This document shows positions 6,309-57,155 of a DNA stretch of 64,000 nt, piece after piece. A program made the position numbers and the translations under genes. How positions within the stretch are numbered: position 1 is the stretch's first letter; each line of letters opens with the position of its first letter. The notes beneath the pieces are model-generated. The model saw nothing but the letters and a program-made list of their open reading frames with translations. It made no database searches and was not told where the DNA came from. The stretch is from positions 29,784-93,783 of the forward strand of contig JAFXYP010000086.1 in the NCBI GenBank assembly GCA_017541665.1, read 5' to 3'. The DNA is from Lentisphaeria bacterium (GTDB lineage: Bacteria > Verrucomicrobiota > Lentisphaeria > Victivallales > UBA1829).

Positions 6309-7049
6309 TTATTGCTTGTTATGATCGGCCACGGTGTGTATCACGATGACGATGCCGCCTCCCAACGCGACGAGGAGCAGCGCGATCGGAGTCGACAATG
6401 AAAGGATCCCGTCCTCCTCCTCGGAATCCTCAAGGCGGGAACTGCTTACTATGAACTGGGACGAGATCTGGCCGTTCTTGCATGCGTTCTTTTCAAAGAA
6501 AAGGACCGCCGTCCCTTTGTCCAACAGACGCGAATCGTCGGACGCCCCGGTTTCGGCAACGGAGAAAACGTTTTTTTCCGCACCGTCTTCGCGCCCCGCA
6601 ATGCCGATTTCCTCCGTGACACTGTCCTCGAAGGAAATGGCGAAATCATAGGCCCGGCGCGCATCATCGCCATGATTGCGGAATGCGGCCGAACCGGCGG
6701 TCGCCGCCTTCCCGGATCCTGCTTCGGCAGCAGACGCCGCGTCGTCAGGGCCCGAAGCTTCCTGGGACACCGCATGCGCGCCGTCTCTTTCATAATCGAC
6801 CGAAAAGCCGCCGTTCTCCATCTCGGCGGCACCGCCGTACCGGAGCAATAACGCCGCACACAGGGGGTCGTTCTCCGCGGCATCAAGCAGAAAACGCGCA
6901 TAGGCATTATCGCCTTCCGGCACGGCGCCGCCGAAGGTAAAGATGGTCTCCCTGCGGGCATCTTCGTCCAACGGATCCTCCGCAACGGCGGAAGCGAGGC
7001 CGACGGAGAGGAAGAGCACGGCAGGAAGCAGAATGTTCCGGAGGTTCAT
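6309..7049 (-). CDS. secreted acidic protein with C-terminal hydrophobic anchor
   Basis: Signal peptide MNLRNILLPAVLFLSVGLASAVA and C-terminal helix IALLLVALGGGIVIVI. It sits 25 bp upstream of the TPR gene on the same strand. Confidence 0.5.
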   Translation of the reverse strand: MNLRNILLPAVLFLSVGLASAVAEDPLDEDARRETIFTFGGAVPEGDNAYARFLLDAAENDPLCAALLLRYGGAAEMENGGFSVDYERDGAHAVSQEASGPDDAASAAEAGSGKAATAGSAAFRNHGDDARRAYDFAISFEDSVTEEIGIAGREDGAEKNVFSVAETGASDDSRLLDKGTAVLFFEKNACKNGQISSQFIVSSSRLEDSEEEDGILSLSTPIALLLVALGGGIVIVIHTVADHNKQ

Positions 7050-7274
7050 ATTCGGATACCCTTCATGTTGTCACAGCTCCGGCATTTCAGGCCGGAGAAG
7101 CCGGATTATGCCATATTTCCCTTCGAACGGGTTCATCTTGTTCATCTGGCATAATATAGCATAAGATGCCTTTTTGTCAACGGATATTCCGCAAGTTTTT
7201 CGAGCCGTTCGGCAGCGGTCGGAAACCGGGAGAAACCATCCGGGGGACCGGAACGGTCCCGACCGGCAGCCGTC

Positions 7275-53401: not shown

Positions 53402-54628
53402 TCACCGGGCGAAGACGAGCAGAAAACCGGCGATCCCGCCGAGGATGAATCCGAGCAGCTGGATCATGCCGAGTTCCTCGCCGGACACGTCGCGGACAAG
53501 CCTGTGGACTTTTTCCGGGTCCAGGCCCAGGATCGACCTGCGGATGTGGCCGGGCAGATCGAGCCCGGCAATGATCGCGTCTTTGTTCCGGCGGATCTGC
53601 TGCTGCAGGAAGACCCGGATGCCCGGCAGGATCTGTTCGCGGATGATCTGCCACACGAGCTCGTCCTCCAGGAACTCCAGCAGTTTCCCGGCGAGGTCGT
53701 CGCGCAGGGCCGTGAGCGCATCGCCGATCCCGGCGTCCCGCTTCAGCGCCGCGATGTCCGCCTCAAGCTCGGTCGAAAGCAGATATCCCTCCAGGCGAGA
53801 CTCGAACTCCGCCAGTTTCTGTTTGACCTGCCGGTCGGCATCCTGCCCGGAGAGCTTGTCCCGAATGGAGCTTTCCAGCTTGCGCCACGGCAGGTTTTCC
53901 CCGTTCGCGCCCGTAAAGATGCTCAGGACGGCCCCTTTGATCGGATTGTCGTGCATGTACTCCGCGATCATCGCGGGCATGTTCGCGCGGATTTCGCCGA
54001 TCAGGCCGGGGGTCTGCTCCTTCAGTTCGTCCAGGATCTTTTTCCGCAGCGCTTTGTTGCGGATTACTTTCTCCTTCACGAAACCTGTGCCGTAGAGATG
54101 GTAGAACCGGCGCACGTTCGACGGAGTGAATCCCGCCTCGATGCCCGTGGATCCGGCAGTATCGAGGAACGCCGCGATCCGCCGCGTGAGCTCCTGCTTC
54201 CGGTGTTCGTCCCGGATATAGTCCGCGACCATCGCGTGAAGCCGGTCCGCAAGCTCGGGATCCTGCATGGCTTCGCGGATCCTCCGCCGGATCTGAAACG
54301 CGATCCGCTCCGGCGGCATCAGGTTGGCGGGGATCTGTTCCGCGAGCGTGTCCGCCAGGCCCGGCTGGTTCTTCGGGATCATCCCCTGGAGCCCGCCGAG
54401 CCATCTTGCAGGACGGTACGGACGGAAGAGCAGCTGGATCGCCAGCCAGTTCGTGAGGTAGCCGACCGCGGCCGCCGTGAAGACGGGAACCAGCCAGTCC
54501 GTGACGGCCGCGGGGAATTCCGCTGCGCCGGTCCTGCGGAGCACGCCGCACACCACCGTCGCAGCCAGGGAAAACAAGCTTATCCCGAAGCACATCGTAT
54601 TCAAGGATTTCATTGTCTGTTTTTTCAT
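53402..54628 (-). CDS. DUF445-family membrane protein
   Basis: AVGYLTNWLAIQLLFRPYRP and a C-terminal TM helix (IQLLGFILGGIAGFLLVF), as in DUF445/YheB-like proteins. Confidence 0.7.
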   Translation of the reverse strand: MKKQTMKSLNTMCFGISLFSLAATVVCGVLRRTGAAEFPAAVTDWLVPVFTAAAVGYLTNWLAIQLLFRPYRPARWLGGLQGMIPKNQPGLADTLAEQIPANLMPPERIAFQIRRRIREAMQDPELADRLHAMVADYIRDEHRKQELTRRIAAFLDTAGSTGIEAGFTPSNVRRFYHLYGTGFVKEKVIRNKALRKKILDELKEQTPGLIGEIRANMPAMIAEYMHDNPIKGAVLSIFTGANGENLPWRKLESSIRDKLSGQDADRQVKQKLAEFESRLEGYLLSTELEADIAALKRDAGIGDALTALRDDLAGKLLEFLEDELVWQIIREQILPGIRVFLQQQIRRNKDAIIAGLDLPGHIRRSILGLDPEKVHRLVRDVSGEELGMIQLLGFILGGIAGFLLVFAR

Positions 54629-54811
54629 TCTGCACCTTTCCGGTCATGGTTCGATGATTTCGTATCGGACAATGATTACAATATACCGCCGCCCACGCCA
54701 TGAAATGTCATAGCGGGAACGGCGGGCGATATTCCGGGATCGGGATCACCCGATCATTCGCAAATCCAATACGGCTCTTCAAATTCGACCGGGCATCCCC
54801 GGTTGCGTTTT

Positions 54812-55177
54812 CTATCTTCTTTCAAACACCAAGCTGCTGTACATCCCTGTTGCGGGATCATGCCCTTCACCTTTGACTCGGTACAGGGATTTTATTGCTT
54901 TGATAAATTCCTTGATCGCAAAAATCACACTGGCGATAGCAGTAAACAGTTGAGCAAACAGTTTCAGCATTGCGATTATTTTATCTATCTCTTCCGGGGT
55001 AGGCATTCGAAAAGCATTATAGCATAAATAATCAGGATTGTTCGAGGATTCCGATGGCATTATGTCGCATTTTTTTACAAGGAATTTGATCAAACCAGGA
55101 TCTTTGACCAGAATAACATCTTCCTTGTCGATCACGACGGCTTTTGCAAACTCAAAACGGTTTTTTACTTCAACCAT
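54812..55177 (-). CDS. small protein P2 (121 aa), paralogue of P1, unknown family
   Basis: RBS AAAGGAGAAGACC-ATG. It shares the N-terminal module MVEVKNRFEFAKAVVIDKEDVILVKDPGLIKFL, a central hydrophobic/amphipathic helix and a C-terminal GHDPATG motif with P1. The gene looks A/T-rich by eye. Confidence 0.65.
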   Translation of the reverse strand: MVEVKNRFEFAKAVVIDKEDVILVKDPGLIKFLVKKCDIMPSESSNNPDYLCYNAFRMPTPEEIDKIIAMLKLFAQLFTAIASVIFAIKEFIKAIKSLYRVKGEGHDPATGMYSSLVFERR

Positions 55178-55233
55178 GGTCTTCTCCTTTGTTTGTTTTA
55201 GACTTGGTTATTTGTGGTGTTTTTGCGAAAGAG

Positions 55234-55353
55234 TCAGGTTCCATCTTCAGCAGAGTTTTTTGAGACGGCTTCTCCTCAGGCAGAAGACTTCGATTTCTTC
55301 GGTTTGACGGCAGTTTGCGCGGCTTCGGATTTCGTCCCAGCAGACGTTTTATC
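55234..55353 (-). pseudogene. decayed duplicate of the 3' end of the WYL regulator gene
   Basis: The in-frame translation ...SAGTKSEAAQTAVKPKKSKSSA*GEAVSKNSAEDGT* aligns with the regulator C-terminus ...SAAGKKASSAPKAKPKRKSHTRKRIVSKSSVEGCP*. The stop sits at the homologous position. The 25-nt box after the stop is conserved at 22/25 positions. Confidence 0.6.
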
Positions 55354-55408
55354 AAGACCGTGCTTATCCGATGATTTGCGAATCAAATACAGCTTTCGTT
55401 TTCGATTA

Positions 55409-55780
55409 TCATTTCTCCGCTTGTTCTTCTCTGCGTTTCCTGAACTTAACGCAACCGACCTTCCCCGTTTCAGGATTGAAGCCGTCGATCGTAACATCAT
55501 ATTCTTTTTCAAGCGCTCTTTTCACAAGATATGTTCCGCAGATGAGGATGGCGATTGCGATTATCGCTTCAATAATAGGTTCAATGACATCAGGGGAGAG
55601 CTCTAACGAAAGAGTGCTGTTCATCCCGCAAGGTCCGCCGGAGGAGGAGGGTTCCGGCAGTTTGACATGGCCTTTTTCTATAAGGTACTTTATCAGCTCA
55701 GGGTCTTTTACTATGATTTCATCCTCTCCGTCTATCACGAGAGCTTTTGCAAGCTCAAAACGGTTTGTTACTTCAATCAT
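55409..55780 (-). CDS. small protein P1 (123 aa), unknown family, predicted single hydrophobic helix
   Basis: RBS AAAGGAGAATGCC-ATG at 55780; the ORF-track start at 55843 would overlap the regulator. MIEVTNRFELAKALVIDGEDEIIVKDPELIKYL, helix IIEAIIAIAILICGTYLV, and C-terminal GFNPETG. Confidence 0.65.
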   Translation of the reverse strand: MIEVTNRFELAKALVIDGEDEIIVKDPELIKYLIEKGHVKLPEPSSSGGPCGMNSTLSLELSPDVIEPIIEAIIAIAILICGTYLVKRALEKEYDVTIDGFNPETGKVGCVKFRKRREEQAEK

Positions 55781-55833
55781 GGCATTCTCCTTTATGTTCG
55801 GTTTGATTATTACGTAGTGTTTTTGCGGAAGGG

Positions 55834-56937
55834 TCAGGGGCAACCCTCAACAGAACTTTTCGACACGATTCGTTTTCGGGTGTGGGATTTTCTCTTCGGC
55901 TTGGCTTTCGGTGCGGAGGACGCCTTCTTCCCGGCGGCGGAGGCGGCCTCTCCCCGGTTGCGCTCCCAGATGAGCCTGCCCGCGTCGGCGACCTTCGCAC
56001 GGAGTTCGGCCGGCTCCAGGACCTCGATCTTCCCGGATTCGCCGAGGACCCAGCGGATGACCTCGTGTTCGAACGCGGGCTTGAGGGTGATGACGAGGGA
56101 GCCGTCGGTCTGCGGTTCGACCTTGAACTGCTTCACGGGCTGGTGCTCGCGGAGGTAGAACGCGATGGACGCGTCGCAGCGCAGGCGGATGCCGCTGACC
56201 CTGGGGTAGATGAAAAGGCCGTTCTTCCGGGTGTCCTCGATGAGCTTCTTGTCGGAGATGAAGGTGTCGCCGGCATACGAGGCGGAGAGGATGCGCTGGA
56301 TGGCGTAGACCTTCACGTCCTTCGTACCGGATTCGTAGCCCTTTGTGTACCACACGCCATTGCGGAACGCGAGGATATGCGGTTCGAAACGGCGGACGGA
56401 TTCCGGTTCGTTCGGCTTGTGGTAGGTCAGCTCGACGACCTGATGCCGGCGCCATGCGTCGAAAATCCTCTTGAAGACCTCCGGGGCAACCGCGGACTTG
56501 ATGCCCGTGGCGCAGAGGATGGACTCGATCATGGCGTCATCGAAGAACCTGGAACTGTTTCCCGCCAGCGCACTTTCCATCGCCGAGTTCGCCCTTGTCC
56601 GGACCGGTTCGGGGAGGAAATCGGAAACGAGGCGGGTGCTGAGCAAGGACATGCTCAGGACATCGTCGTTCATGAGCGGGACGTTCAGTTCCCAGCCCGG
56701 ATTGACCAGGAAATAGCCGCGGTTCACCGGATCGTACTCGATCGGGGCATTGTATTCATTTTTCAGCGTCTCGATGTCGCGCATGATCGTCCGCGTGCTG
56801 CATGTGCAGGAGATGTTTTCCTCCGCGTCGGCCCGCAGCAGAAGCCGCGCGAAACTCCCCGCGTTCGGATAATTGTTCTTCCTCATCTCCGCAACGAATT
56901 TCATCAGCCGCAGCGCCTGTCTGCTCTGTACGCTCAT
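55834..56937 (-). CDS. HTH-WYL-domain transcriptional regulator (BrxR/CapW/PafBC-like architecture) with Lys/Ala-rich tail
   Basis: N-terminal wHTH (SFARLLL...STRTIMRDIETLKNEY.APIEYD...GY). Central WYL region (VELTYHKPNEPESVRRFEPHILAFRNGVWYTKGY). C-terminal extension domain. Confidence 0.8.
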   Translation of the reverse strand: MSVQSRQALRLMKFVAEMRKNNYPNAGSFARLLLRADAEENISCTCSTRTIMRDIETLKNEYNAPIEYDPVNRGYFLVNPGWELNVPLMNDDVLSMSLLSTRLVSDFLPEPVRTRANSAMESALAGNSSRFFDDAMIESILCATGIKSAVAPEVFKRIFDAWRRHQVVELTYHKPNEPESVRRFEPHILAFRNGVWYTKGYESGTKDVKVYAIQRILSASYAGDTFISDKKLIEDTRKNGLFIYPRVSGIRLRCDASIAFYLREHQPVKQFKVEPQTDGSLVITLKPAFEHEVIRWVLGESGKIEVLEPAELRAKVADAGRLIWERNRGEAASAAGKKASSAPKAKPKRKSHTRKRIVSKSSVEGCP

Positions 56938-56974
56938 TTTTCACACTCCATTCGGTTTTAATGAATTGAATGTT

Positions 56975-57002
56975 AATATATGCCATTTCCGAACCATTGC
57001 AA
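56975..57002 (-). promoter_or_regulatory. putative promoter of the WYL regulator cassette
   Basis: On the minus strand: TTGCAA, 16 nt, TATATT, about 35 nt upstream of the ATG (RBS GGAG). Confidence 0.5.
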
Positions 57003-57054
57003 GTGTCACAGGAGAACAATTGCTGAAAAAAGTGAGAGATAAACAAGGATCGCG

Positions 57055-57080
57055 ATGCTCCCCTTGACAAACGGGAGCAT
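57055..57080. promoter_or_regulatory. perfect 8-bp inverted repeat, candidate operator
   Basis: ATGCTCCC, 10 nt, GGGAGCAT. It lies about 50 bp upstream of the -35 of the WYL promoter, in the divergent intergenic region. Confidence 0.35.
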
Positions 57081-57155
57081 GATACGGCCACGGACGGGGG
57101 ATGCCTTTTTTTCGTTTTTATGGACAATCTGCGGTTGATTTCGCAAAAAAACGCC

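Follow-up and report, generated by a model that had tools for sequence, protein, structure and literature searches.

Several transcription regulators with a WYL domain have been characterized. PafBC is an activator of the damage response that senses single-stranded DNA (ssDNA) (PMC11804915). DriD is likewise a WYL activator in the damage response, and its targets include didA, the gene for a 71-amino-acid division inhibitor with a single transmembrane segment (PMC9186387; PMC4211646). CapW and BrxR are ssDNA-sensing WYL repressors that head phage-defence operons (PMC11662680; PMC9122601). Here we describe a locus of a Lentisphaeria bacterium in which a WYL regulator gene is followed, on the same strand, by genes for two small paralogous proteins, P1 and P2, and then by a gene for a DUF445 membrane protein. 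The locus lies within a stretch of 64,000 nucleotides (contig JAFXYP010000086.1, positions 29,784 to 93,783), hereafter the window, to which all coordinates given without a locus name refer. With about even confidence, we read P1 and P2 as accessory, predicted single-pass membrane proteins that are expressed with the WYL regulator and belong to a membrane-centred stress regulon.

With CapW and BrxR the window regulator shares its three-domain architecture, its position as first gene of a same-strand unit with short gaps, and the quasi-palindromic box that accompanies its gene. It differs from them in that the genes downstream match no catalogued defence system, and in that it is a resident gene whose box stands before DUF445 and a divergent GTPase gene, not before P. 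The likeness to the DriD–didA pair lies in the combination of a conserved chromosomal WYL gene with a small, lineage-specific protein that has one helix (predicted in P) and short flanking domains. P proteins (119–138 amino acids), however, are predicted to have two parts without a counterpart in DidA, a folded N-domain and a hairpin at the C-terminus, and the P genes are strain-variable, duplicated, adjacent to the regulator gene and without a regulator box at their own 5′ end. P also resembles phage superinfection-exclusion proteins, class III holins and membrane immunity proteins in being small and fast-evolving, with one hydrophobic helix, low G+C content, tandem divergent paralogues and copy-number variation; it differs from these in having no phage genes nearby, no phage relatives and no profile match. 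Overall, the window regulator resembles the DriD/PafBC group as a conserved resident gene and BrxR/CapW as the head of a same-strand unit, while P resembles DidA-like inhibitors in size class and predicted single helix, and conflict genes in turnover, duplication and rate.

Organization of the WYL–P–DUF445 locus

Read along the minus strand, the locus consists of promoter, WYL gene, a 53-nt gap, P1, a 231-nt spacer, P2, a hairpin and DUF445. The WYL gene (55834..56937) encodes an HTH-WYL-WCX transcription regulator of 367 amino acids, assigned from Pfam, PADLOC and its orthologues. It is preceded by a sigma-70-type promoter, TTGCAA-16-TATATT (56975..57002, minus strand), which a sequence scan found where a first-pass annotation of the window had put it. 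In an alignment of upstream regions this promoter is kept, as TTGCA-N~17-TATATTAA, in front of 16 WYL orthologues. The sequence TGTGACAC touches its −35 hexamer and sits at −71, as it does in locus L028. P1 (55409..55780) encodes an orphan, predicted single-pass membrane protein of 123 amino acids, characterized from its open reading frame (ORF), BLASTP, hydropathy and AlphaFold; P2 (54812..55177) encodes a 121-amino-acid paralogue of identical architecture (ORF, BLASTP, AlphaFold). The same strong ribosome-binding site, AAAGGAGAA-nn-CC-ATG, precedes both.

We recognized no terminator or promoter between WYL and P1 or between P1 and P2, which makes co-transcription of the three genes, from the conserved WYL promoter, probable. 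The transcript would probably end at a G+C-rich hairpin found by a hairpin scan directly 3′ of the P2 stop codon (54786..54805, listed on the plus strand); the 91-nt region at this hairpin has a folding z of −3.3 and is without a clear T-run on the minus strand. Beyond it, a pattern scan located an 18-bp quasi-palindromic box, GCCATGAAATGTCATAGC (54697..54714, strand unassigned), a candidate WYL operator. It is followed 11 nt downstream by a TATATT (54680-54685, minus strand) that precedes the DUF445 gene (53402..54628, minus strand; 408 amino acids; Pfam DUF445, 8.5e-23).

The first-pass annotation had described the whole regulator–P block as A/T-rich. This is true of 54601-55900, that is, of P1, P2 and their spacers, which form the longest low-GC tract in the window; it is not true of the WYL gene, which has 61% GC and a G+C content at third codon positions (GC3) of 0.85, matching its neighbours. 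GC3 is 0.47 in P1 and 0.43 in P2, against 0.84–0.86 in WYL, DUF445 and the parE-like gene. The WYL regulator gene is thus compositionally native, and low GC is confined to P1, P2 and the spacers. In every host, P-family genes have a GC3 of 0.43–0.54 compared with 0.69–0.86 for their neighbours. Weakly selected genes can drift toward the AT-biased mutational equilibrium, and the low GC3 of P could reflect either such drift or exchange with a lower-GC gene pool; both fit.

The regulator gave Pfam matches to WYL (2.6e-13, residues 153-219) and WCX (1.1e-13, residues 250-321), together with an HTH_11 match (0.0044, residues 46-75) below the Pfam cut-off, and it matched the generic WYL models of PADLOC at 4e-27. 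Its PDB matches were very distant: PafC was the best (E 1.7e-3), with an alignment spanning WYL and WCX, followed by BrxR (5.9e-3) and CapW (0.05), where the alignment lay over the WYL domain. To judge from these matches it is a genuine HTH-WYL-WCX protein of the PafBC/DriD/BrxR/CapW superfamily, in line with the winged-helix–WYL–C-terminal-domain assignment made at first pass.

Orthologues of the regulator, at 62-85% identity, are encoded in 15 GTDB species representatives, all rumen or gut metagenome-assembled genomes labelled Lentisphaeria, Victivallales, Victivallaceae or, in one case, Kiritimatiellae. A hidden Markov model (HMM) search of six-frame ORFs found no P-family ORF in any of these 15 loci, which lack synteny to the window beyond WYL and, in some, DUF445. 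On this distribution the WYL gene is best regarded as a conserved resident gene of the Victivallales and not as part of a mobile island, and the earlier proposal that WYL and P were acquired together horizontally does not hold. The neighbours of the 15 orthologues are heterogeneous and include no consistent catalogued defence system; the slot downstream of WYL elsewhere holds genes for a KAP NTPase, AAA_14/DUF4143 and AAA-ATPase_like+PDDEXK_9. In L023 (7200-9700) an island of 35-39% GC lies directly downstream of the WYL orthologue on the opposite strand and encodes a zinc-ribbon protein together with a P-loop NTPase of the KAP family. Variability of the slot after WYL therefore extends to other lineages.

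Two further observations concern the regulator gene itself. In the DUF445-linked clade the protein ends in a Lys/Ala/Ser/Pro-rich, histone-H1-like tail (residues ~331-367 in the window, 55834-55947; also L001:190-487 and the 3′ ends in L016, L027 and L028), which is highly variable in length and sequence, the whole protein having 365-401 amino acids in this clade; more distant orthologues (327-341 amino acids) are without a tail. Secondly, one same-species contig is a mosaic (L011:1-700 compared with 56700-57020): it has ~45 mostly synonymous differences in the first ~80 WYL codons, the region upstream of WYL also differs and the remainder is near-identical, the recombination tract ending inside the HTH region.

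P1 and P2 belong to an orphan family of predicted membrane proteins

P1 and P2 are real, paralogous genes, whose products are 37% identical (BLASTP, E 4e-20). The features that the first-pass annotation had noted in the pair, a shared N-terminal module, a variable linker, a hydrophobic helix and a C-terminal motif, (D/N)PxTG, extend to the whole family, in which ORFs are conserved at 119-138 amino acids in about eight distinct forms. In P1 the parts are an N-domain (1-35), the linker, the helix (63-92) and a beta-hairpin (94-115). AlphaFold gives the fold as beta(2-4)-alpha(7-16)-beta(22-24)-alpha(27-36), then a disordered Pro/Ser-rich linker, a helix at ~61-98 and a C-terminal beta-hairpin that carries the conserved (D/N)PxTG. 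Two independent runs, on shallow alignments, agree (predicted local distance difference test score, pLDDT, 65 for P1 and 81 for P2).

Hydropathy agrees with the probable membrane character suggested at first pass: averaged over 19 residues, the helix core reaches a Kyte–Doolittle value of 2.0-2.8 in every family member, as a membrane-spanning segment could, and we predict that P proteins are single-pass membrane proteins. In all members the N-side flank of the helix is acidic and the C-side flank richer in Lys and Arg, so that the positive-inside rule would put the C-terminus in the cytoplasm (predicted N-out/C-in).

The family is extremely restricted. No member has an above-threshold profile match in Pfam, NCBIfam, PADLOC or PHROGs; the best Pfam/NCBIfam matches are at chance level and confined to single members (E 0.027-0.2), and we rejected such matches, among them bacHORMA_2 (E 0.14), DUF6404 and FtsX, each seen in one member. 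An exhaustive profile search of 1.84 billion representative proteins gave six P-family clusters plus ankyrin-repeat noise, two further members, P0011 and P0012, emerged when the 90% set was searched with a profile, and k-mer-indexed searches gave only near-identical copies and P0003. The ankyrin-repeat matches (P0007-P0010) were set aside: residues ~28-56 were matched repeatedly, a helix-turn resemblance summed over repeats and not homology. The exhaustive search, which returned clade members and repeat-protein noise only, gave no homology to DidA or SidA. A PDB profile search with P found no sequence match, and when PDB and BFVD were searched by Foldseek with both P models, no hit fell below E 0.2. 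The difficulty of placing P1 and P2 in any family, reported at first pass, extends to structure.

All P-family members come from rumen or gut Victivallales, and the window holds no third paralogue. The nearest relative of P1 is P0004 (45%) and that of P2 is P0003 (47%). We conclude that the P proteins, with about eight distinct sequences, make up a true orphan family, new and unclassifiable. A mobile-element origin was considered and rejected, since P has no relatives in IMG/VR viral contigs, in INPHARED/GenBank phages or among PLSDB plasmids. One member, P0005, has a frameshift or stop after MVEVKTKFDL (L014:88-140), and the called protein begins at an internal Met; the lesion is either a sequencing error or the mark of a decaying copy, and the intact form is P0011.

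The P genes turn over within a fixed slot

Wherever the context of a P gene can be read, the gene lies in the WYL–DUF445 slot: in the window, L001 (P0003), L012/L013 (P0004), L015 (P0006), L031 and the P0011 contig. It is always directly upstream of DUF445 or of its conserved leader, the latter being recognizable in L015. WYL itself can be seen upstream in the window, L001, L012/L013 and L031; the contigs of L015 and P0011 do not extend far enough to include that position. The first-pass annotation had reasoned that homologues occurring mainly without WYL neighbours, outside variable regions, would speak against a regulator-linked cassette; every homologue with visible context is in the slot. 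In L017, L027 and L028, only 84-110 nt separate the WYL stop from the DUF445 start, and P is absent. A lineage-restricted P gene would have been inserted between the resident WYL gene and its boxed target, DUF445, with P1 and P2 as diverged tandem copies.

The origin of the tandem can be traced in the spacer. P1 and P2 share homology in their upstream regions over ~100 nt, and the last ~100 nt of the P1–P2 spacer match WYL 3′ ends in blastn, the window's own with E 6e-8 and that of L001 with E 9e-6. This segment (55204..55306, minus strand) consists of a relic of the WYL 3′ end, with a K/S/A-rich tail and an in-frame stop, and then a P1-like 5′ leader; its frame-1 translation, KPKKSKSSA*GEAVSK, may be compared with the regulator tail of L001, KPKKSSAAGNAVSKKTSKD*. 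The P2 unit can thus be parsed as a relic of the WYL tail, a leader and P, and its sequence indicates how the tandem originated: a segment made up of a WYL 3′ end and P was duplicated or recombined. As P1 is nearest to P0004 and P2 to P0003, two old allelic lineages now appear to be joined in tandem. A 14-mer, TTYCGCAAAAAMAC, is common to the P1 leader, the P2 leader and the WYL–parE intergenic region, its remaining matches in the window falling in A-rich intergenic tracts (8.3-13.5 kb). For this reason, and because it is not kept upstream of P genes in other species, we rejected it as a regulatory site; in P1 and P2 it merely belongs to the duplicated leader.

Copy number changes between close relatives. 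L031, from the window species (~98.3% nucleotide identity, WYL protein identical), has a single P gene whose leader and first codons are those of P1 and whose body is that of P2, a chimera such as unequal crossing-over between the repeats should produce. GCA_016648615.1 holds two further P paralogues on small contigs that break at the repeat. Taken together with the window pair and the P-less loci, these cases give copy numbers of 0, 1 or 2 and at least two duplications, and the sequences point to homologous recombination and unequal crossing-over as the source of the change. Both paralogues are intact in all 10 same-species contigs examined.

Replacement of the segment is also seen. L001 and L027 have ~99-100% identity over the WYL core and again over DUF445 beyond about codon 55; the replaced segment between comprises the WYL tail, P and the DUF445 N-terminus, with P0003 present in L001 and no P in L027. 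P therefore lies in a segment that differs between near-identical strains, in agreement with the variable region anticipated at first pass. The first ~55 DUF445 codons lie within this strain-variable segment, and the DUF445 N-termini of the two strains are 57% identical compared with 99% for the remainder. Locus dynamics, with a fixed slot, a duplication scarred by the WYL tail and allelic replacement between near-identical strains, are well documented.

That P is always immediately upstream of DUF445, and that the segment replaced between L001 and L027 covers P together with the first ~55 DUF445 codons, would suit a P protein that is an accessory subunit or modulator of DUF445, co-varying and exchanged with its N-terminal transmembrane segment. 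We think this quite improbable. DUF445 occurs without P in three species, the N-termini of DUF445 proteins with and without a P gene beside them show no clear distinguishing signature (a comparison of only three versus three sequences), and DUF445 has its own boxed promoter and is separated from P2 by the hairpin.

P proteins change in sequence much more rapidly than their neighbours do: in comparisons between species they have 30-47% identity, compared with 71-85% for WYL and DUF445. Within the window species the contigs are near-clonal, so substitution counts come from the window and L031 only: no changes in WYL (1104 nt), one synonymous change in DUF445 (1227 nt), five synonymous and one non-synonymous in the parE-like gene (1863 nt), and three non-synonymous and no synonymous in the P2 body (366 nt). 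The differences between P1 and P0001, and between P0005 and P0011, cluster in and around the disordered linker, and relaxed constraint therefore explains part of the pattern.

A gene under weak selection might look like this, and P could be a young, lineage-specific by-product, born locally or left by a lost element, that hitch-hikes at the locus while drifting to loss. The extremely narrow distribution, the frequent loss, the N-terminal frameshift in the L014 copy, the low GC3 (consistent with weak selection) and the concentration of changes in the linker are what such a gene should show. We nevertheless consider this very unlikely, because ORF length, the four-part architecture and the motifs (N-terminal module, DP..., (D/N)PxTG) are kept down to 30% identity in at least eight forms, the strong ribosome-binding sites are conserved, both paralogues are intact in 10 of 10 same-species contigs and AlphaFold is confident on P2.

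The same dynamics bear on the defence module proposed by the first-pass annotation. Spelled out, WYL would repress the operon, phage or DNA damage would de-repress it, and P1 and P2 would permeabilize or block the membrane in abortive infection or superinfection exclusion, the paralogues broadening specificity. P stands directly behind a wHTH-WYL-WCX gene, as do the genes of BrxR/CapW-headed operons (PMC9122601; PMC11662680). Presence and copy number of P vary between strains, deeply diverged tandem duplication occurred independently twice, strain differences are biased to non-synonymous changes, P codon usage is atypical, and in other lineages the WYL-downstream slot carries genes typical of variable regions, such as those for KAP NTPase, AAA_14/DUF4143 and AAA-ATPase_like+PDDEXK_9. 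Known defence genes are usually patchy and horizontally spread; P is absent from viral, phage and plasmid collections and restricted to one syntenic slot in one clade, and the WYL gene is resident and without P in 15 species. P1 and P2 have no PADLOC match, and no box lies upstream of them.

The surroundings of the locus do not provide a defence setting either. One window flank consists of a GyrB/ParE-like gene and the gene for a 920-amino-acid partner, and the other of hisH, hisA, aroB, dprA, accD, rph and purM; against a defence island, the neighbours are thus parE/parC-like and housekeeping genes (his, aroB, dprA, accD, rph). We found no mobility genes, catalogued defence genes or phage genes among the flanking genes of the window species, and no prophage, lysin, toxin or secretion-system genes near P1/P2 in these flanks. 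We therefore regard the defence module as rather unlikely.

An 18-bp box accompanies DUF445 and a double GTPase

The alignment of the upstream regions of 16 orthologues contains an inverted repeat ~130-140 nt before the WYL start codon. Its consensus, G[AC]CA[CT]NNN[AT]TGTCAT[AG][CG]C, has a sole 15/15 match in the window, at 54697-54714, between P2 and DUF445. The box, which goes with WYL in nearly all Victivallales loci, is present in front of DUF445 in every WYL–DUF445 locus, directly after WYL in L016 and L024, and upstream of WYL in L019, L021, L023-L026 and L028-L030, where some copies fit only a relaxed version of the pattern. Examples are at L001:972-989, L016:7226-7243, L017:7115-7132, L024:5861-5878 and 6998-7015, L026:5866-5883, L028:5865-5882 and 7181-7198, and L029:5862-5879. 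By the information content of the pattern, chance alone should give ~0.02 strict matches over the 357 kb examined. The 18-bp box is likely to be the operator of the WYL regulator, for which we consider it the candidate. The bare heptamer TATGACA was discarded as a signal, being only marginally enriched in the window and resembling a −35 hexamer; the 18-bp form is the meaningful one. In the window, a perfect 8-bp inverted repeat, ATGCTCCC-N10-GGGAGCAT, lies at 57055-57080, ~120-145 nt upstream of the WYL start, the position at which other species hold the 18-bp box.

The second recurrent partner is a double GTPase of ~850 amino acids, whose gene divergently adjoins WYL at 10 of 15 species loci. 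It combines two P-loop GTPase domains (Pfam Septin, MMR_HSR1, Dynamin_N) with a DUF697 segment, and in PADLOC it matches LeoA and mad8 weakly (E ~1e-11). It is encoded on the minus strand at L028:1852-4422, L029:1818-4391, L024:2317-4710 and L023:3205-5763, and is partial in L019, L020, L022, L025, L026 and L030. An FHA, vWA or 160-amino-acid gene lies between GTPase and WYL, with boxes in that intergenic space. L028 has the arrangement GTPase <- WYL -> DUF445; the GTPase gene is absent from the corresponding position in the window. From the recurrence of GTPase and DUF445 we infer that the conserved partners of the regulator are membrane-associated and that P is a late, clade-specific addition.

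These partners bear on a further possibility, a damage checkpoint in which the WYL protein would act like DriD or PafBC and P would block division or envelope synthesis during repair, like DidA, SidA, YneA and ChiZ. Inhibitors of division that are induced by damage are lineage-specific and poorly conserved, and their genes often adjoin that of the damage regulator, as yneA and Rv2719c adjoin lexA. The WYL gene, like DriD and PafBC, is a conserved chromosomal gene, topoisomerase-IV-like genes are neighbours and dprA is nearby in the window species. P is predicted to have a single hydrophobic helix with short domains on either side, a layout also seen in DidA (PMC4211646). No box stands before P, whereas the didA promoter has a DriD site (PMC9186387). 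Moreover, the recurrent boxed partners (double GTPase, DUF445) are membrane proteins and not repair genes, P has no homologue outside its clade, and P is dispensable between near-identical strains and duplicated in others, which is unusual for a checkpoint protein. We consider the checkpoint unlikely.

A possible role for the P proteins

Our preferred interpretation, that P1 and P2 are accessory membrane components of the WYL stress regulon, can be put as follows. The regulator probably senses ssDNA or a related damage or infection cue, like DriD, PafBC, CapW and BrxR, and probably acts via the 18-bp box on DUF445 and, in other species, on the divergent dynamin/septin-like double GTPase. The P proteins would be dispensable membrane components whose most likely effect, once the operon is up-regulated, is to halt or disturb an envelope process. 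Within this scheme a conflict role for P, in phage exclusion, abortive infection or immunity, is a possibility that we hold only tentatively. A more specific proposal is a minimal two-part module in which WYL would be the sole sensor of ssDNA or an infection cue and a single hypervariable, bitopic P protein of new fold the sole effector of abortive infection or exclusion, with effector diversity arising locally, as tandem duplication, unequal crossing-over and allelic replacement act on a single slot, and not through island transfer; this we judge distinctly improbable.

Several points weigh against our interpretation. A scan of the window found no box of at least 12/15 upstream of P1 or P2, so no binding site speaks for direct control of P by WYL; the best box in the window's WYL–parE intergenic region is 11/15, no better than 80 random sites. 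Co-transcription of WYL and P is probable on two grounds only, the short gaps and the lack of detected signals, and WYL-dependent control of P and its effector role are inferred. Membrane insertion and topology have been predicted from hydropathy values and from an AlphaFold model built on a shallow alignment, and the hinted N-out/C-in orientation would be unusual for a 60-residue N-terminal part without a signal peptide. The low GC3 of P could be explained by drift of a weakly expressed, fast-evolving gene and not by foreign origin. The strain-level substitution counts are tiny. Finally, much of the fast divergence is in the linker, and the rate difference may partly reflect relaxed constraint rather than an arms race.

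A regulator beside a small membrane protein is a variant of known arrangements, and the locus does not by itself show a new mechanism. Should the P proteins prove to be membrane effectors that are induced, the few WYL-controlled outputs would gain a new protein fold, and it would follow that a conserved, resident WYL regulator can acquire lineage-specific effectors inside its own transcription unit, with strain turnover at one fixed locus. A by-product of the analysis, maybe more useful in the short term, is the 18-bp box and the likely regulon (double dynamin/septin-like GTPase, DUF445) of a Victivallales-wide WYL regulator, a testable entry to stress signalling in a gut phylum that is uncultured and has hardly been studied. 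A tiny family and an uncultured organism set the bounds of the case, and our functional statements are all readings of sequence.

Minor features near the locus

A zinc-ribbon protein of 77-78 amino acids is encoded after DUF445 in four loci (L012:2606-2842, L017:8447-8683, L027:8555-8791 and L028:8518-8754) and directly after WYL in L016 (7361-7594); in the window, hisH follows DUF445 instead. The 920-amino-acid ORF after the GyrB/ParE-like gene (59202-61964) has no Pfam family on record in contig look-ups, and its C-terminus is a low-complexity tail of ~220 residues, rich in Pro, Ala and Lys, with PAPAPA and AKPxPA repeats.

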